64,000 nucleotides of DNA from Candidatus Saccharimonadota bacterium. GTDB lineage: Bacteria; Patescibacteriota; Saccharimonadia; Saccharimonadales; UBA10212. Within the stretch, counting starts at the first letter, position 1. Every line of letters begins with the position of its first letter. Shown here piece after piece: positions 9 through 22,738 of the stretch. The notes beneath the pieces were generated by a model. It saw nothing but the letters and a program-made list of their open reading frames with translations, was not told the DNA's origin and did not search any database. Location of the stretch: the NCBI GenBank assembly GCA_016187125.1, contig JACPKF010000001.1, forward strand, positions 238,178 through 302,177, read 5' to 3'. The position numbers and the translations under genes were made by a program.

Positions 9-85
9 TGGTGGAGACGATGGGAGTCAAACCCACGACCTCATGCCTGCCAGGCATGCGCTCTAATCAACTGAGCTACGTCCCC
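9..85 (-). tRNA. tRNA-Ala (anticodon GGC), CCA encoded
   Basis: The reverse complement folds as a cloverleaf. Acceptor GGGGACG/CGUCUCC, D stem GCUC/GAGC, anticodon stem CAUGC/GCAUG with loop CUGGCAG, T stem GUGGG/CCCAU, then ACCA. The D loop is AGUUGAUUA and the T loop is UUUGACU, both non-canonical. Confidence 0.9.
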
Positions 86-227
86 TCGTCGGAATCGACG
101 TGTCGGCTTCCATAACTCACTAGGAGTAAATTACTTTCAGCCTCAGGTCGCTTCCTCCTTTTCAATTCTACAAGCTCTGCTACGCACGATCTTATAGAAT
201 TGGTGTAAGAACAGGGGTATTATACCA
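86..227 (-). promoter_or_regulatory. tRNA leader module copy C with upstream extended -10 promoter
   Basis: Read on the minus strand: TGGTATAAT (plus 219-227), then CCAATT, an 11/12-bp hairpin (163-202), AATTGAAAAGGAG, and exactly 69 nt to the tRNA-Ala 5' end. About 50 nt of the leader are near-identical to the tRNA-Phe leader (GAAGCGACCTGAGGCTG ... TTATGGAAGCCGACACGTCGATTCCGACG). Confidence 0.6.
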
Positions 228-258
228 ATTTCAGTGGTAGTGTGCCATGCCCGCGTCG

Positions 259-2412
259 TTAAAAATGCAGCCTGCGTAGGAGTTGGGCGTTTAGGGCAAC
301 GATGATTGTCGATAGCGACATTAGCCCCGCGCCAACGGCTGGGGCTAGTACGATCCCATACTGATACAAAACACCTGCCGCCAGGGGGATGGCAACAACA
401 TTGTAGCCGGTTGCCCAAATAAGGTTTTGTTTCATCTTGCTATAGGTTGCCTTGGAGAGTTTTATAACCTTTACGACATCGCGCGGATCGCTTTTGACCA
501 GTATTATATCTGCCGACTTAATAGCCACATCGGTGCCGGCACCAATCGCCAGACCAATGTTGGCCTGAGTTAGAGCTGGCGCGTCATTAATACCGTCACC
601 AACCATAGCAACTTTTTGGCCACCAGCTTGCAGTTGTTTGACCCTCGCCACTTTGTCCTGCGGCTTAACCTCAGCAAAATACTGGTCCAGACCAAGTTGG
701 CTGGCAACGTAGCTGGCAACATCTTCTGAGTCACCAGTTACCATGGCCGTTTTAATATTTAACTTCCTTAAGGCGCCAATGGCCGTTTTTGATTCATCAC
801 GAATGACGTCTGCTAGAGCCAGCGCGCCGATAACATTATTACCTCTTAACAAATAAACTTCGGACTTGCCTTGCTTGGCAGCGGCTTTTATCTTTGATTC
901 AACGGCGGTCGGTACTACTAGCTTATTCTCTTCGATGTAGCGGCGGCTGGCAGCTACATAAGGCTTGCCGTCCTCAAGTACGCCCTTGACCCCTAAGCCG
1001 GGTAAGGCTGAAAAATTGGTAACCCGGCCGGCCAGCAACTTTTTTTCCTGGGCATATTTGACAATGCCTTTGCCGATGATATGTTCGCTGTTTTGTTCCA
1101 GGCTAGCGGCCAGCCGCAAAATATCATCTTGGCTGTAACCCTTTGTCGGCCAGATATCTGTCACTCCGTGCTCACCACGAGTCAGTGTACCGGTTTTATC
1201 AAACAAGACTATATCAAGGCTACGGGCTGACTCTAAGGCCAAGCGTTTACGGATGAGTAAACCGTTACGGGCCGACAGAGTCGTTGAAATCGAAACCACC
1301 AGCGGGATAGCCAGGCCCAGGGCATGCGGACAAGCGATGATTAAAACTGTGACGCTGCGTTCCAGCGCAAAGCCGCTGTCTTTGGCTACCGTCCAAAGCA
1401 AAAATGTTAACAACCCAACCACAATAGCGACGATAGTCAGAGCAAAGGCTGCTTTATCAGCCAGCATCTGGACGTTAGATTTTGAGGCTTGAGCCTCAGC
1501 CACCAAACGCATGATGCCAGCCAGAGCCGTATCTTCGCCGATTTTTGTAACTTTCACCGTCAGTGAGCCATCTTGGTTAATGGTGCCAGCCACCACCTCG
1601 TCGTTAACTGTCTTGCTGACTGGTTTAGACTCACCAGAAATAGCCGCCTCATTAACAGAGGAACTACCCTCAGTAATCTGGCCATCAACCGGTATAGCCG
1701 CGCCCGGTCGTACTAACACCAGATTGCCAACTTCCAACTGGCTGACCAGGACCGGCTGAGGTCTGCCATTAACTAATTTTTCAGCCTTATCTGGTATTAA
1801 TTGAGCAATGGCATCCAAAGCGCTTTGGGCTTTTTTGATAGAAGCCATTTCCAGCCAATGCCCCAGCAGCATGATGGTAATTAAAGTAGCCAGCTCCCAA
1901 AAGAAGGTTTGGCCTGATAAGCCGAATTGGACAGCCACGCTGTAAATAAAGGCTGTTGAAATAGCCAAGCTAATTAAGGTCATCATCCCCGGCCGGTGAC
2001 CCTTCAATTCGCCCAGCGCGCTCTTGATAAAAACTAGGCCGCCGTAAAGAAAAATAACTGTGCTTAAGACAAACGGAATATAGCCTGAACCGCTAAAGGC
2101 CGGCAGACTAAAATTCAACCATTGTTGGATAGTCACTGAATATGCCAAAACCGGAATCGTTAAAGTCAGGCTTAACCAAAATCGGTCACGAAACATCGCT
2201 ACCGAGTGTCCGGCGTGCTTGTCTCCCATAACCTTCTTGACCTTCCGAAGCTTTTTAGCGAAGGAGGTGGCAGAGGCGGATTTGTCAAGCTCAACATCAG
2301 GTTTTTTTGCCTGTGGGATCAACGACATGCCGCATTTGGGGCACGAACCAGGTTCATCTTGAATTACTTCTGGATGCATCGGGCAAGTGTAAATCGGCTG
2401 TTTATCGTTCAC
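259..2412 (-). CDS. heavy-metal-translocating P1B-type ATPase (CPH motif, CopB-like)
   Basis: 717-aa ORF. N-terminal CPMHPE...CPKCGM metal-binding motif, transmembrane CPH motif (IACPHALGLA), DKTGTLT phosphorylation site and GDGINDAP hinge. Confidence 0.9.
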   Translation of the reverse strand: MNDKQPIYTCPMHPEVIQDEPGSCPKCGMSLIPQAKKPDVELDKSASATSFAKKLRKVKKVMGDKHAGHSVAMFRDRFWLSLTLTIPVLAYSVTIQQWLNFSLPAFSGSGYIPFVLSTVIFLYGGLVFIKSALGELKGHRPGMMTLISLAISTAFIYSVAVQFGLSGQTFFWELATLITIMLLGHWLEMASIKKAQSALDAIAQLIPDKAEKLVNGRPQPVLVSQLEVGNLVLVRPGAAIPVDGQITEGSSSVNEAAISGESKPVSKTVNDEVVAGTINQDGSLTVKVTKIGEDTALAGIMRLVAEAQASKSNVQMLADKAAFALTIVAIVVGLLTFLLWTVAKDSGFALERSVTVLIIACPHALGLAIPLVVSISTTLSARNGLLIRKRLALESARSLDIVLFDKTGTLTRGEHGVTDIWPTKGYSQDDILRLAASLEQNSEHIIGKGIVKYAQEKKLLAGRVTNFSALPGLGVKGVLEDGKPYVAASRRYIEENKLVVPTAVESKIKAAAKQGKSEVYLLRGNNVIGALALADVIRDESKTAIGALRKLNIKTAMVTGDSEDVASYVASQLGLDQYFAEVKPQDKVARVKQLQAGGQKVAMVGDGINDAPALTQANIGLAIGAGTDVAIKSADIILVKSDPRDVVKVIKLSKATYSKMKQNLIWATGYNVVAIPLAAGVLYQYGIVLAPAVGAGLMSLSTIIVALNAQLLRRLHF

Positions 2413-3137
2413 TGCTTCTGGCCTCCATGTTCCGTTGGGCAGTTAGGCTCGTGGTTTCCCGGTTCTTCTTTGGTTAGCCGGCCGTCTTCAATAGTAATAA
2501 CTCGTTTAGCCACATCTTTTAAACGAGCGTCATGACTAACAATAATAACAGCTCGGCCCTCAGAGCAAGCAGTGTTGCAAAGCAGCTGCATGACTTCGTG
2601 GCCGGTTTTACTATCTAAGTTGGCCGTCGGCTCATCGGCTAGTATAACTGCTGGTTGGTTGGCTAGGGCTCGGGCTACCGCTACTCTTTGTTTTTCACCG
2701 CCGGATAAATTCTTCGGCAGACTATCCAGCCTTTCACCAAGCTGAAGCTTTTCCAGCAGTTCCTCAGCCTTCTTTAAAGCCGGCTTTTTTGATAGTCCGG
2801 CTATCATTAGCGGCACTGCCGCATTCTGCTGAGCAGTTAAAGCCGATAACAAATTGAATGATTGGAACATGAAGCCAAGATGATGAAGGCGCAAGTTAGC
2901 CAATTTGGCCCCCGACATTTCGGAAATATCCTCGCCGCCTATCCAGATTGTGCCGCCAGTTGGCCGCATCAAAGTGCCGAGCATGGAAATCAGCGTCGTT
3001 TTACCAGAGCCGGATGGACCCATAATTAAAATGATATCGCCGGCTTCAACTTTCAGGCTAACACCATTTATAGCCTTAACGGCTGTATGGCCTGAACCAA
3101 AAATCTTCGTGATATTCTTGGCTTCGATAATACTCAT
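2409..3137 (-). CDS. ABC transporter ATP-binding protein (MacB/LolD/FtsE-like)
   Basis: Walker A GPSGSGKTT, signature LSGGEKQRV, Walker B ILADEPT. The C-terminal tail HEPNCPTEH is Cys/His-rich. The stop overlaps the ATPase start by 4 nt. Confidence 0.9.
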   Translation of the reverse strand: MSIIEAKNITKIFGSGHTAVKAINGVSLKVEAGDIILIMGPSGSGKTTLISMLGTLMRPTGGTIWIGGEDISEMSGAKLANLRLHHLGFMFQSFNLLSALTAQQNAAVPLMIAGLSKKPALKKAEELLEKLQLGERLDSLPKNLSGGEKQRVAVARALANQPAVILADEPTANLDSKTGHEVMQLLCNTACSEGRAVIIVSHDARLKDVAKRVITIEDGRLTKEEPGNHEPNCPTEHGGQKQ

Positions 3138-3285: not shown

Positions 3286-4398
3286 TCATGCCTTGAATAC
3301 CTCTGCCGGATCAACGTCGGCAATTCGTCTAATTGGCATGTACGAAGCCAAGGTGGCCATAGCCAGCGTCAGGCCAAAAACCCAAAGCATGTCTAAAGCA
3401 TTAATTTGCGAAACAAATTGCGGTACAAAGTCACCAACAGTCGCCTGCAAACCAAAGGCAATTAAACTACCAGTTGCAAAACCTGTTAAACCGGCTATCA
3501 TAGCTTGCTTGATAACAACACCATAAAGTTGGCGATGACTCATGCCGATCGCCTTCAGTACGCCGTATTCCCGAATTTTTTCGACCACTGACGTGAAGAT
3601 GGTTAAGCCAATGACTGCCGTACCGACGACCGTGCCGATAATCAGCAGCACCAAAATTACCGGCAGAAAACTTTCGCGGATGAGCTTGGTGTTGTTAGAC
3701 ACAAATTGCTTTTTTGTAACTGCGTCAACACCGGGAAGATTGTTTTTGATATTGCTAATTGCCTGGTTTGGATCAGTGTTGTTTTTGAGCTGTACGGTAA
3801 AGAAATTAGTTGAGTTTGGCAAGCGTAAAATTTGTTCGGCATCCTCTTTAGCAGCAAAAGCGAACGAAAAAGTCACTACATCACCCCCTTCGGACAGTCC
3901 GACGACTTTGAATTTTTGCCCGGCAATATCAAGTGAATCATTTATTTTTATGTTTTTGTTCTTGGCTGTTATTCTATCGACGATAATTTCGCTGGCTTGC
4001 GGTACGTTTTGGCCGGTCGCGATGGCTGCGGGTAGGCCAGTTTGACGCTCGGCGTCATAGGCCACGATATATAGACCGACATCTTGTTGATTAGCTGTAT
4101 GGAAGGCTACGCGGCGACCGCTAAAGGGCTTTACACTGGCTATACCATCCAGGTCTGCAATTTTGGATTCATAATCTAACGGTAGAACTGACGGCGTATG
4201 GAACATATCTTCTGTTCCATCTTGCATCACCCATAGGTCGGCTGGTACCGACCGGATGTATTGACCCATTTTATCGTTCCAGCCTCTGTATAGACCGGTT
4301 AGCACCATAATCAGGACGATACTAAAAGCCACGCCGCCAACGCTAATTAACAGTCTGGTCTTTTCTTGAAAAAGATTACGGACAGCAATTAGGAACAT
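3286..4398 (-). CDS. ABC transporter permease, FtsX/MacB family
   Basis: 370-aa ORF. N-terminal TM helix, large periplasmic-type domain, then a C-terminal three-TM FtsX-like block. Adjacent to the ABC ATPase. Confidence 0.8.
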   Translation of the reverse strand: MFLIAVRNLFQEKTRLLISVGGVAFSIVLIMVLTGLYRGWNDKMGQYIRSVPADLWVMQDGTEDMFHTPSVLPLDYESKIADLDGIASVKPFSGRRVAFHTANQQDVGLYIVAYDAERQTGLPAAIATGQNVPQASEIIVDRITAKNKNIKINDSLDIAGQKFKVVGLSEGGDVVTFSFAFAAKEDAEQILRLPNSTNFFTVQLKNNTDPNQAISNIKNNLPGVDAVTKKQFVSNNTKLIRESFLPVILVLLIIGTVVGTAVIGLTIFTSVVEKIREYGVLKAIGMSHRQLYGVVIKQAMIAGLTGFATGSLIAFGLQATVGDFVPQFVSQINALDMLWVFGLTLAMATLASYMPIRRIADVDPAEVFKA

Positions 4399-16537: not shown

Positions 16538-16569
16538 TTGGGTAAAATAACAGAGGTTAATGAAGCTGA

Positions 16570-16688
16570 CCAATTTTGTAAAATCGTGTTTCAGTAGACT
16601 TTTACAAAATTGAGAGGAGTGGCCATAGCCATAAGCCGAAGCTTTTGCCAGACCTGGCGAAACGAGGTATTGGCGTAGGCCTCGACGA
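16570..16688 (+). promoter_or_regulatory. tRNA leader module copy A
   Basis: CCAATT, a perfect 12-bp hairpin (16572-16611), AATTGAGAGGAG, then exactly 69 nt to tRNA-Leu(CAG). A TAAAAT box lies at 16543-16548 upstream. Confidence 0.6.
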
Positions 16689-16775
16689 GGCGCAGTGGTG
16701 AAATTGGTATACACGCTACGTTCAGGACGTAGTGGGGGTAACCCCGTGAAGGTTCAAGTCCTTTCTGCGCCACCA
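16689..16775 (+). tRNA. tRNA-Leu (anticodon CAG), type II, CCA encoded
   Basis: Acceptor GGCGCAG/CUGCGCC, anticodon stem CUACG/CGUAG with loop UUCAGGA, long variable arm, T loop UUCAAGU. Confidence 0.9.
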
Positions 16776-16787
16776 AAAATTGGACAT

Positions 16788-16845
16788 GGAGGTTAGCCCC
16801 GCTCCGCCAGCCGGCGGACGGAGCGCTGTCCTCTTTCGCCCACCA
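16788..16845 (+). other. tRNA 3'-end fragment (Leu-GAG-type T arm plus acceptor plus CCA) split by a 34-nt GC hairpin
   Basis: GGAGGTT[34 nt: agccccgctccgccagccggcggacggagcgctg]TCCTCTTTCGCCCACCA, compared with the intact 3' end GGAGGTTCGATTCCTCTCTCGCCCACCA at 19391-19418. Confidence 0.6.
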
Positions 16846-19197: not shown

Positions 19198-19274
19198 TGG
19201 TGGGCGATGAGGGACTTGAACCCCCGACACCCTGAGTGTAAATCAGGTGCTCTAGCCAACTGAGCTAATCGCCC
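19198..19274 (-). tRNA. tRNA-Val (anticodon TAC), CCA encoded
   Basis: Reverse complement GGGCGAUUAGCUCAGUUGGCUAGAGCACCUGAUUUACACUCAGGGUGUCGGGGGUUCAAGUCCCUCAUCGCCCACCA. TGGTATAAT lies upstream on the minus strand. Confidence 0.9.
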
Positions 19275-19330
19275 GGCACAGGTGATTATACCAGATGAAA
19301 TGCTATACTTTATGCTGTTAGATTCGCTTT

Positions 19331-19418
19331 GGGCGAGTGCTGTAACCAGGTAGCCAGGCTGGCTTGAGGTGCCAGTGTCCGTAAGGACGTGGAGGTTCGA
19401 TTCCTCTCTCGCCCACCA
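19331..19418 (+). tRNA. tRNA-Leu (anticodon GAG), type II, CCA encoded
   Basis: Acceptor GGGCGAG/CUCGCCC, anticodon stem CUGGC/GCCAG with loop UUGAGGU, long variable arm, T loop UUCGAUU. TGCTATACT lies upstream. Confidence 0.85.
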
Positions 19419-20359: not shown

Positions 20360-20406
20360 GCCCATCTTTACTTGCTCATATCTGTTAAAATATCCTTGTA
20401 GCTTCA

Positions 20407-20527
20407 CCAATTTTGCAAAGTTCCGCATCGCTGCAGTACTTTGCAAAATTGAGAGGAGGAAGCGACCTGAGGCTGGAAATAAACAAGTTATACTTGTTTA
20501 TGGAAGCCGACACGTCGATTCCGACGT
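20407..20527 (+). promoter_or_regulatory. tRNA leader module copy B
   Basis: CCAATT, a perfect 12-bp hairpin (20409-20450), AATTGAGAGGAG, then exactly 69 nt to tRNA-Phe. TGTTAAAAT, an extended -10, lies at 20383-20391 upstream. Confidence 0.6.
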
Positions 20528-20603
20528 GGCTCTTTAGCTCAGTTGGTAGAGCAGAGGCTTGAAGAGCCTTGTGTCCCCAGTTCGAGTCTGGGAGGAGCCA
20601 CCA
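20528..20603 (+). tRNA. tRNA-Phe (anticodon GAA), CCA encoded
   Basis: GGCUCUUUAGCUCAGUUGGUAGAGCAGAGGCUUGAAGAGCCUUGUGUCCCCAGUUCGAGUCUGGGAGGAGCCACCA. Canonical cloverleaf. Confidence 0.9.
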
Positions 20604-22575: not shown

Positions 22576-22661
22576 TGGTGGGCGGGGAGGGACTTGAACC
22601 CTCAAGCCTTTTGGGCACAGCATTTTAAGTGCTGCGCGTATACCGATTCCGCCACCCGCCC
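22576..22661 (-). tRNA. tRNA-Leu (anticodon TAA), type II, CCA encoded
   Basis: Acceptor GGGCGGG/CCCGCCC, anticodon stem CAGCA/UGCUG with loop CUUAAAA, long variable arm, T loop UUCAAGU. Confidence 0.9.
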
Positions 22662-22664
22662 GGG

Positions 22665-22738
22665 TGGAGGCGCGAACGAGATTCGCACTCGTGTACAGGG
22701 TTTTGCAGACCCTTGCCTAACTCCTCGGCCATCGCGCC
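22665..22738 (-). tRNA. tRNA-Cys (anticodon GCA), CCA encoded
   Basis: GGCGCGAUGGCCGAGGAGUUAGGCAAGGGUCUGCAAAACCCUGUACACGAGUGCGAAUCUCGUUCGCGCCUCCA. Lies 3 nt upstream of tRNA-Leu(TAA). The T loop UGCGAAU has G at position 55. Confidence 0.8.

Follow-up and report, generated by a model that had tools for sequence, protein, structure and literature searches.

A two-hairpin leader module abutting tRNA, tmRNA and a few mRNA genes in Candidatus Saccharibacteria

The 5' leaders of bacterial transfer RNA (tRNA) and transfer-messenger RNA (tmRNA) precursors are ordinarily short, with neither sequence nor structure conserved between genes, and tRNA leaders are generally viewed as stretches that ribonuclease (RNase) P simply removes. 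In the tRNA-His precursor bacterial RNase P cuts at the extra nucleotide G-1, and in MALAT1-mascRNA an RNase P cut at a tRNA-like structure forms the 3' end of the upstream RNA. The hammerhead core reads CUGANGA ... GAAA, with stem III formed from the flanks and an NUH triplet 5' of stem I. Among mRNA leaders, the cry3A STAB-SD of Bacillus thuringiensis is a 5' stabiliser with a Shine-Dalgarno-like run far upstream of the start codon (PMC4113751). Bacteria of the candidate phyla radiation (CPR) keep RNase P RNA, though in diverged form (PMC8172020). Here we analysed a 64,000-nt stretch of Candidatus Saccharimonadota bacterium (the window; GenBank assembly GCA_016187125.1, contig JACPKF010000001.1, positions 238,178 to 302,177 of the forward strand), in which a module of two hairpins and a conserved tail ends directly at the first nucleotide (+1) of three tRNA genes, and we followed this module through public genomes and metagenomes.

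tRNA genes in the window were called by ARAGORN and Rfam, and the module precedes three of the nine, namely those for Leu(CAG), Phe and Ala(GGC) (Table 1). A preliminary description, made from the letters of the window, had placed copies at these three genes; they are present where it put them, and the observation is confirmed as real. Each copy runs from ACC through a first, AU-rich hairpin of 12-14 bp (H1), the strand AATTGA(G/AA)AGGAG, a second, long and imperfect hairpin of ~65 nt (H2) and CGACG(A/T) to the tRNA +1. The H1 arms had been quoted correctly and are complementary in all three copies, with one U.G pair in the Ala stem. The distance from the end of AGGAG to +1 is indeed 69 nt in all three, but it is not a family rule (17-82 nt elsewhere), and what had been taken for a 69-nt spacer is the second long hairpin followed by the conserved CGACGA tail. 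The 5' sequence said to be shared needed amending, as the Leu copy has GACCAATT and not CACCAATT, and the motif common to the three window copies is ACCAATT. The box after H1 reads AATTGAGAGGAG in the Leu and Phe copies and AATTGAAAAGGAG in the Ala copy, and the reported blocks GAAGCGACCTGAGGCTG and TTATGGAAGCCGACACGTCGATTCCGACG are both found in the Phe and Ala leaders.

The -10-like boxes described upstream of the modules are readable in all three cases; that of the Ala copy passes the promoter scan, but those of the Phe and Leu copies fail a two-hexamer scan. No promoter-like site was found by the promoter scan between the module and its tRNA in the three window copies. The covariance-model scan described below placed no module at the other six window tRNAs; at these genes the -10 box, where readable, ends ~10-21 nt before +1, the box of tRNA-Ala(CGC) being ambiguous.

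Table 1. Coordinates of the module copies and adjoining features in the window (position 1 is the first nucleotide of the window; positions of minus-strand features are given on the forward strand).
Feature	Position	Strand	Remarks
-10-like box TAAAAT, Leu(CAG) leader	16543..16548	+	by reading; putative promoter; two-hexamer scan not passed
Leu H1	16570..16614	+	arms CAATTTTGTAAAA / TTTTACAAAATTG within 16571-16612; possible added pair C16570-G16614 across bulged A16613; fold, covariation of equivalent helix
Leu H2, type B	16616..16686	+	core GAAGCTTTTGCC...GGCGAAACGAG; fold, model match, column frequencies; putative clamp G16616-C16686, G16617.A16685, A16618.G16684, G16619-C16683
Leu tail CGACGA (-6 to -1)	16683..16688	+	ends at tRNA-Leu(CAG) +1 = 16689
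tRNA-Leu(CAG)	16689..16775	+	CCA encoded; terminator-like hairpin after gene at 16812-16828
-10-like box TAAAAT, Phe leader	20386..20391	+	TGT before it; by reading; putative promoter; two-hexamer scan not passed
Phe H1	20407..20453	+	stem 20408-20451; possible pair C20407-G20453 across bulged A20452
Phe H2, type A	20455..20525	+	GGAAGCGACCTGAGGCTG ... GGAAGCCGACACGTCGATTCC; fold, model match; putative clamp G20455-C20525, G20456.A20524, A20457.G20523, G20458-C20522
Phe tail CGACGT	20522..20527	+	ends at tRNA-Phe +1 = 20528
tRNA-Phe(GAA)	20528..20603	+	
Ala promoter-like site ATGGCA-18-TATAAT with TG	219..248	-	TATAAT at 224-219, then ACCCCTGTT; passed promoter scan
Ala H1	163..203	-	arms CAATTCTATAAG (202-191) / CTTGTAGAATTG (174-163); one U.G pair
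Ala H2, type A	88..158	-	fold, model match; putative clamp G158-C88, G157.A89, A156.G90, G155-C91
Ala tail CGACGA	86..91	-	ends at tRNA-Ala(GGC) +1 = 85
tRNA-Ala(GGC)	9..85	-	

Further copies were collected in two samples. A pattern of H1 plus the box, run against bacteria at one genome per species, gave 33 loci with ~22 real copies, nearly all in Candidatus Saccharibacteria (Saccharimonadia) metagenome-assembled genomes of similar G+C, a distribution that assigns the window to a Saccharibacterium as well. For the second sample metagenomes were scanned with the core of one H2 type only (GAAGCTTTTGCC N3-12 GGCAAAACGAG), so that conservation could be judged on bases outside the search pattern, and at least 120 loci were obtained. 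From the metagenome matches listed, 88 non-redundant full-length copies, chosen via H2 alone, were used as the set for tallies. Public Saccharibacteria genomes and metagenomes together hold well over 100 further copies. A few copies lie on contigs with other labels (L081 and L083, Binatia; L085, a 562-kb Nevskiaceae contig; L091; L103), but the modules, tRNAs and tmRNA on them are typical of Saccharibacteria, and these contigs have probably been mis-binned or given a wrong label.

Both hairpins are supported by folding and by covariation. Each window leader folds far better than its shuffles (z = -4, -7 and -6); folded in full, the Phe and Ala precursors keep the two hairpins and the cloverleaf as three independent domains, and the Leu precursor keeps H1, with a minimum-energy fold that changes H2 and the tRNA part. 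H1 is always present in the metagenome copies with quite different stem sequences, and the UGAGAGGAG strand and an NGACGA tail are conserved in them although both lie outside the search pattern. RNAalifold, applied to an alignment of 50 copies picked only through the H2 core, recovered H1 and three H2 helices with compensatory double changes in 21 of 31 pairs, the apical H2 helix being invariant by construction of the search. Standard pairs fill 94.1% of cells in this alignment, against 76.6% after shuffling and 33-45% (around 41%) when the partners are slid, and cells changed on both sides number 287 against 86 after shuffling. Among 11 copies with type-A H2 (the Phe/Ala type) 97.5% of cells are paired versus 90.6%, with double-change pairs at 16 versus 6.3. 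G.U and U.G cells outnumber A.C and C.A cells by 69 to 21, an excess that indicates folding of this strand. A covariance model built from the metagenome copies only and then run on the window matched the Leu copy (16566-16691, plus strand, 95 bits, E = 6e-18), the Phe copy (20403-20530, plus strand, E = 3e-6) and the Ala copy (83-207, minus strand, E = 1e-3); with E allowed up to 1 the window gave a single further match, which overlaps the palindromic H1 of the Phe copy on the opposite strand (E 0.017). The same model finds extra copies within the related loci. Compensatory changes, first noticed in H1 of the window copies, are thus strong in both H1 and H2 of the metagenome alignment, and relatives yielded well over 100 more copies together with this covariation, the reverse of the outcome that would have refuted the preliminary description.

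Rfam 15 returned nothing over the module at gathering or permissive thresholds (E up to 1-5) in the window and 34 related loci, where only tRNA, tmRNA and rRNA were matched, and full-text literature searches found no description of such an element. Within Rfam 15 and the literature searched the element looks like a new, undescribed class of leader RNA, in line with the earlier impression that nothing of this kind had been described, and an undescribed, transcribed 5' leader with a covarying hairpin is supported.

Several features would suit a DNA-level element: the Phe copy is a mosaic (its H1 is like that of Leu, and its H2 like that of Ala), the same H2 stands before different tRNAs in different genomes, copies occur at either end of tRNA genes and in either orientation relative to the gene, tRNA 5' regions are visibly reshuffled by insertions, with a recombinase-like open reading frame (by eye) beside a cut tRNA-Met, a 20-bp direct repeat lies on both sides of the L140 copy, and a homolog is found upstream of the NikA/MobC gene of a mobilisable element. 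The module might thus be mainly a selfish or DNA-level repeat, either a hairpin cassette spreading between tRNA borders or an operator or single-stranded DNA signal, with little function as RNA. We consider this very unlikely, as two hairpins with many compensatory changes and a 3:1 ratio of G.U over A.C argue for selection on a folded strand, an operator would hold its sequence whereas the stems do not, the edge follows RNA landmarks (the mature +1 and tRNA-His G-1), and the incoming piece in the interrupted tRNA loci described below is always without a module (5/5 by exact 16-nt repeat). Covariation and the G.U excess likewise ruled out a protein operator or DNA palindrome, and a miniature inverted-repeat transposable element, repetitive extragenic palindrome or other palindromic DNA repeat was rejected on the two internal hairpins, the missing terminal inverted repeat, the compensatory changes and the G.U excess. 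Given the 20-bp direct repeat around the L140 copy, the element may nonetheless be mobile. Two readings of the DNA around the box were also discarded: a small open reading frame after AGGAG has no conserved start codon or frame (the Phe and Ala frames differ and stop early), and a sigma-70 promoter in H1 would have hexamer-like arms 23-25 nt apart whose sequences are not conserved in the metagenome copies.

The most conserved part of the module is the junction between its hairpins and the downstream RNA. By column frequencies H1 is closed by U60-A9 and G61-C8, and C7-G63 probably adds a pair across a bulged A62; in the four sequences with U at column 7, column 63 is A in three and G in one. 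A64 is invariant (100%) and free. Box and tail pair as G66-C139, G67.A138, A68.G137 and G69-C136, of which G69-C136 covaries (5 C-G, 3 A-U) and the tandem G.A pairs of this putative clamp are read from conservation because invariant columns cannot covary. On the 5' strand U60 (100%), G61 (92%), A64 (100%), G66 (98%), G67 (94%) and A68 (92%) are near-invariant, as are G137 (94%), A138 (100%), C139 (98%) and G140 (96%) in the tail, and these bases lay outside the search pattern. Only G140 (-2) and A141 (-1) stay free before +1. The clamp is kept in L092, although almost all of H2 is gone there and what remains is a short hairpin of ~5-6 base pairs. A GGAG/CGAC motif also caps a GNRA mini-hairpin at the H1 tip in 30 of the 88 copies, and the 5' flank is not conserved apart from CC. 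With these pairs the two hairpins and the first helix of the downstream RNA, which at tRNAs is the acceptor stem, would meet in a tight three-way junction rich in purines. The RAGGAG box was rightly described as conserved, but it is mainly a junction strand and not a free box, and its conservation and pairing suggest a largely structural role.

The hammerhead, the nearest architectural analogue of the module, likewise has a three-helix junction with variable, covarying stems, the order hairpin, U-G-A...G-A, hairpin, G-A, tandem G.A pairs that extend the second stem, and many contexts including a mobile element. The module differs in having no CUGANGA, no GAAA and no stem III formed from the flanks, and its presumed cut lies on another junction strand; with junction strands UGAGAGGAG and CGACGA, a 5' flank conserved only at CC and no Rfam hammerhead match, membership was rejected. 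A kink-turn (K-turn) was rejected because G66-C139 and G69-C136 adjoin the tandem G67.A138 and A68.G137 immediately, leaving no place for a 3-nt bulge, as is also the case at the H1 tip; a junction-type K-turn variant may apply.

STAB-SD is the nearest functional analogue of the purine strand. In both systems a purine run (GAAAGGAGG there; GAGAGGAG or GAAAGGAG here) complementary to 16S rRNA lies near the 5' end and far from a start codon, and in L195, L146 and L147 the run of the module is located in an mRNA 5' untranslated region (UTR). The module's run differs in standing between two conserved hairpins, apparently largely paired, and in being tied to a conserved tail, and most copies precede untranslated tRNAs. 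The strand may act as a Shine-Dalgarno mimic. On this reading GAGAGGAG would pair with the 16S 3' tail and a parked 30S subunit would block 5'-to-3' decay by RNase J, or, as a variant, the 30S subunit would open the clamp and bare positions -1 to -6 for processing, so that the fate of the precursor is tied to free ribosomes. Complementarity of GAGAGGAG to CUCCUUUC of the 16S 3' end in L079 (ACCUCCUUUCU) gives duplexes predicted at -12 to -16 kcal/mol for the linkers of the window copies, columns 62 and 63 vary between A and G only, with pairing to the tail U kept, and the run lies near the 5' end and, in the mRNA cases, ~70-80 nt upstream of the true ribosome-binding site, as in cry3A STAB-SD (PMC4113751). 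Against this, conservation and covariation put most bases of the strand in pairs; most of its 8 nt are used in structure (G61-C8, G63-C7, G66-C139 and the covarying G69-C136), GGAG is also paired with CGAC in the H1 tip, where a ribosome site is impossible, the equally strong conservation of the GACGA tail is unexplained, and stabilising a discarded leader has no obvious use at tRNA genes or in spacers between tRNAs. We regard a STAB-SD-type stabiliser as quite unlikely.

The 3' edge of the module coincides with the start of a functional RNA in tRNA, tmRNA and mRNA transcripts. Among the 88 copies, 69 abut a sense tRNA, covering 17 amino-acid specificities, and six abut tmRNA, so by position 75 directly precede an intact RNase P substrate. 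Seven others abut a tRNA 5' fragment interrupted by an insertion, single copies abut the ribosome-binding site of an Hsp20 gene, an antisense tRNA, the 3' end of the tig gene (antisense) and a tRNA-Met cut in its anticodon loop (L125), and two run to the contig end. Among the tRNA-abutting copies listed, most have 23-24 nt from the H2 core to +1; at tRNA-His genes it is the additional G-1 that the tail adjoins, in L131, L137, L144, L153 and L177 there are 2-6 extra nt between tail and +1, and in L073 and L083 the tmRNA (Rfam) begins right after the module. The distance from box to +1 is 66-70 nt with two H2 types, 79-82 nt with a third and 17 nt in L092. The module, first described at tRNA genes, is thus not specific to them, as it also precedes tmRNA and a few mRNAs: in L195, L146 and L147 only 1-3 nt separate the tail from a Shine-Dalgarno sequence with its ATG, the module being the 5' UTR of an Hsp20 gene in L195 (a Saccharibacteria-like contig) and lying whole in the 5' UTR of a gene for a small glycine-rich protein in L146 and L147 (contigs outside Saccharibacteria), for which no Pfam family was found. 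The mRNA copies show that the cassette is not restricted to RNase P substrates.

Several copies lie inside transcription units. Modules follow an upstream tRNA by 12-16 nt in L072, L079, L089, L137 and L160, and the rRNA operon of L079 is ordered 16S, module, tRNA-Ala, module, tRNA-Ile, 23S; the copies between operon tRNAs and in the rRNA spacer support co-transcription. The module shares with ordinary pre-tRNA and pre-tmRNA leaders, and with functional tRNA spacers such as the Escherichia coli 3' external transcribed spacer (3'ETS-leuZ) sponge, a place upstream of RNase P substrates with which it would be co-transcribed, after promoters and between operon tRNAs, and an end at the RNase P site. 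It differs from ordinary leaders in being a 115-140-nt fold with covarying helices and a near-invariant junction, found at at least 17 specificities, tmRNA and some mRNAs.

We favour, tentatively and with a little less than even confidence, the reading that the module is a transcribed, self-folding, cis-acting 5' leader cassette, which is detached at its 3' edge, with RNase P as the enzyme where a tRNA or tmRNA follows, and whose junction docks a processing or stability factor. The leader would be transcribed from the upstream -10 boxes and its domain would fold alone, with its 3' edge at the start of the functional RNA. It would then be severed there, and for tRNA and tmRNA genes the position of the edge, including that at tRNA-His G-1, suggests that RNase P makes the cut. 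The junction, and the GGAG/CGAC repeat at many H1 tips, would most likely be the docking site for a trans-acting factor, for which a protein, a processing enzyme or the 30S subunit is a candidate, and the docked factor would set the rate or occurrence of precursor maturation or keep the precursor stable.

Several observations weigh against this reading. Transcription from the upstream -10 boxes and cleavage by RNase P are inferred, as are the G.A clamp, on the grounds of conservation, and factor binding. The module is optional, being present at 3/9 window tRNAs and with the same tRNA species occurring with or without it in relatives, so tRNA maturation in itself cannot depend on it. Within operons, the structured module that stays 3' of an upstream tRNA would be expected to impede 3' trimming, an apparent cost. 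The mRNA cases have no evident downstream RNase P substrate, leaving cutting at the 3' edge unsupported there. Four copies run into the 3' end of an antisense gene, which is a tRNA gene in L098, L111 and L076 and tig in L116, and no downstream RNA was recognised at L084, L090 and L140; such antisense-facing and stand-alone copies are not predicted by a purely cis-acting leader.

The module may instead be itself the product, a stable RNA or ribonucleoprotein of ~125-140 nt made on borrowed strong stable-RNA promoters, with its 3' end formed by RNase P at the adjacent tRNA-like structure and with hairpins near both ends that would shield it from exonucleases. The module would then resemble MALAT1-mascRNA, in which a structured upstream RNA gains its 3' end in this way, with the difference that its downstream partner is a genuine, needed tRNA or tmRNA. 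A released RNA would account for a module that is optional for the tRNA and varies between genomes, for stand-alone copies that have a -10-like box to themselves but are followed by no stable RNA (L116/L128, L084, L090), for the copies abutting antisense tRNAs (which could still fold tRNA-like), for modules severed from their tRNA by insertions that still score 96-127 bits, and for a 3' tail that folds back into the clamp. It is nevertheless a fairly unlikely explanation, as there is no conserved single-stranded seed segment besides the self-paired junction, loops and most stems vary freely and a genome has several divergent copies, both of which suit a cis-acting structure better, and in L195, L146 and L147 nothing downstream could form the 3' end.

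The coincidence of the 3' edge with functional RNA starts, within 1-3 nt of the Shine-Dalgarno sequence in the mRNA cases, also invites the idea that the module directs its own 3'-edge cleavage, being either a self-cleaving ribozyme of a new kind or a site recognised by an endonuclease dedicated to it, and would so give any RNA behind it a defined 5' end, much like a natural RiboJ-type insulator. Near-invariant purines sit at the three-way junction beside the presumed scissile bond while the outer helices vary and covary, and, as with small ribozymes, relatives turn up in scattered places, among them a mobilisable element. There is, however, no match to a known ribozyme family even at E up to 5, self-cleavage would give a tRNA with a 5'-OH end, the tRNA cases call for no enzyme beyond RNase P, whose RNA is present in CPR bacteria (PMC8172020), and at the five loci with 2-6 extra nt before +1 RNase P would be needed anyway. 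A cleavage element of this kind is most improbable. For the broader proposition that the module itself sets cleavage at its 3' edge (by self-scission or a dedicated nuclease) or is a factor- or ribosome-sensing gate on RNase P access, we see a rather small chance. Loss of RNase P, with leaderless tRNAs and the module as a substitute, was ruled out, since CPR genomes carry a diverged RNase P RNA (PMC8172020).

Other regulatory leaders were compared as well. Like the boxB-boxA-boxC leaders of rRNA operons, the module has a hairpin followed by a conserved, single-stranded-looking box and occurs after stable-RNA promoters and in the 16S-23S spacer (L079). An rrn antitermination leader was rejected, as the module has no boxA-like pyrimidine-rich sequence and no copy in L079 stands before 16S or directly before 23S; terminator-like hairpins close after the module-bearing window tRNAs also argue against antitermination. 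A T-box riboswitch was discarded for lack of an Rfam T-box match and of an alternative terminator, with tRNA or tmRNA as downstream genes, and an RNA thermometer (ROSE, fourU) because the true Shine-Dalgarno sequence of the Hsp20 gene lies beyond the 3' end of the fold and because ~85% of copies stand before RNAs that are not translated. A likeness to 5S rRNA (similar length, GAGAGUAGGGAAC versus GAGAGGAGGAAC), and to group II intron domain 5, sarcin-ricin/loop E, PyrR and CsrA sites, compared by eye, found no Rfam support and a different topology. In viral contigs a loose sequence pattern gave 69 matches, all by chance (stems of at most 10 pairs, no tRNA), and the H2 core pattern gave no match.

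A conserved and elaborate leader changes the view of tRNA leaders, as it recurs throughout a whole class of ultra-small bacteria with reduced genomes, at no fewer than 17 specificities, at tmRNA and before some mRNAs; these bacteria would spend ~120 nt per gene on something acting on precursor RNA. Each of the candidate roles would be new. An RNase P gate or enhancer would bear on how CPR bacteria, Saccharibacteria included, cope with diverged RNase P RNAs (PMC8172020). As a stabiliser that binds ribosomes or a protein, the module would amount to a modular 5' insulator of natural origin, and if it brought about the cut at its own 3' edge, it would be a new ribozyme or a guide for a nuclease and a tool for making defined 5' ends. 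If the module is self-cleaving or nuclease-recruiting, or gates RNase P, a portable cassette in Saccharibacteria and some other bacteria would set both the 5' end and the timing of maturation for tRNAs, tmRNA and selected mRNAs. Annotators also gain a model for a common intergenic element of Saccharibacteria genomes.

Several loci showed rearrangements at the module or its tRNA. In one recurrent order the module is followed by a tRNA 5' fragment, which breaks off within the D-arm, at nt 37 or within the T-stem, by an insert of 80-180 nt with a TATAAT-like box at its end, and by a complete second copy of the same tRNA; it was seen at L096 ~4045-4223 (minus strand), L097 284-460, L129 5366-5535, L165 1701-1880, L190 from 2479, L207 5221-5340 and L074 5835-5932 (minus strand). 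Several inserts share TGAGAA-[NTGCC NGT GGCAN]-TYGCAAGG ... GGGGTCGCSGAASGTGACC (10 occurrences in 9 loci), a motif absent from the window and without an Rfam match. The piece with the complete copy never has a module (5/5 by exact 16-nt repeat, and the reverse was never seen). In L125 (1400-1830, minus strand) a module-led tRNA-Met is cut in the anticodon loop, and the adjoining open reading frame on the opposite strand is tyrosine-recombinase-like (by eye). The L125 locus suggests that the interrupted tRNA loci are what remains of small integrative elements, which would supply a promoter and a tRNA 5' part of their own.

Some copies point elsewhere. Modules run to within ~3 nt of the 3' CCA end of an opposite-strand tRNA at L098 4476-4604 (plus strand), L111 1301-1427 (plus strand) and L076 5063-5183 (minus strand), the last being back to back with, and 9 nt from, the sense module of the next tRNA; no inverted repeat that would give a long double-stranded RNA was found in this divergent L076 pair. 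Orphan modules at L084 ~560-700 (minus strand) and L090 ~2370-2500 (plus strand) are followed by a shared TTATAAC-N4-CCTAATCCAC and then by a long near-perfect palindrome between pyrimidine-rich and purine-rich runs, a region for which Rfam gave no match. At L140 549-760 an antisense module lies between a TatD-like gene and the start of a cysteine-desulfurase-like gene (both by eye), and a 20-bp piece of the 5' coding region of the desulfurase-like gene is repeated on either side of the module plus ~50 nt, which looks like an insertion footprint.

A gut mobilisable element that encodes an AAA_25 protein, NikA/MobC and a relaxase also has a homolog of the module (L108 2372-2481; L134, L161, L171, L175). 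This homolog is intergenic, lies upstream of the gene for NikA/MobC and reads H1-GAGAGGAG-H2-CG(A/C)CGAG. A plasmid database search with this copy gave no match. Sister contigs (L117, L133, L138 and others) carry H2-only versions, differing by a 58-nt indel that is flanked by GCCGCC and removes H1 and the box.

Elsewhere in the window the protein families are those of an ordinary bacterial chromosome. Most module-less tRNAs seem to have leaders of only ~3-15 nt; tRNA-Val(TAC) and tRNA-Leu(GAG) are divergent and 56 nt apart with -10-like boxes within the gap (19198-19418), and tRNA-Cys is followed by tRNA-Leu(TAA) after 3 nt (22576-22738). An (N)CCCCTGTT block recurs after the -10 box of module-bearing stable-RNA genes, TATAAT plus this block being found upstream of many copies (window 211-224, minus strand; L091, L096, L076, L115, L123, L154, L165), with a shortened CACCTGT after the -10 box of leader-less tRNA genes, and is probably a conserved discriminator and start region of Saccharibacteria stable-RNA promoters. 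Exact matches to the SPFH protein of the window were found only in L001 and L002, ~1.1-kb sequences that end ~20 nt past the box of the Phe module, probably at an assembly break in repeated H2 sequence.

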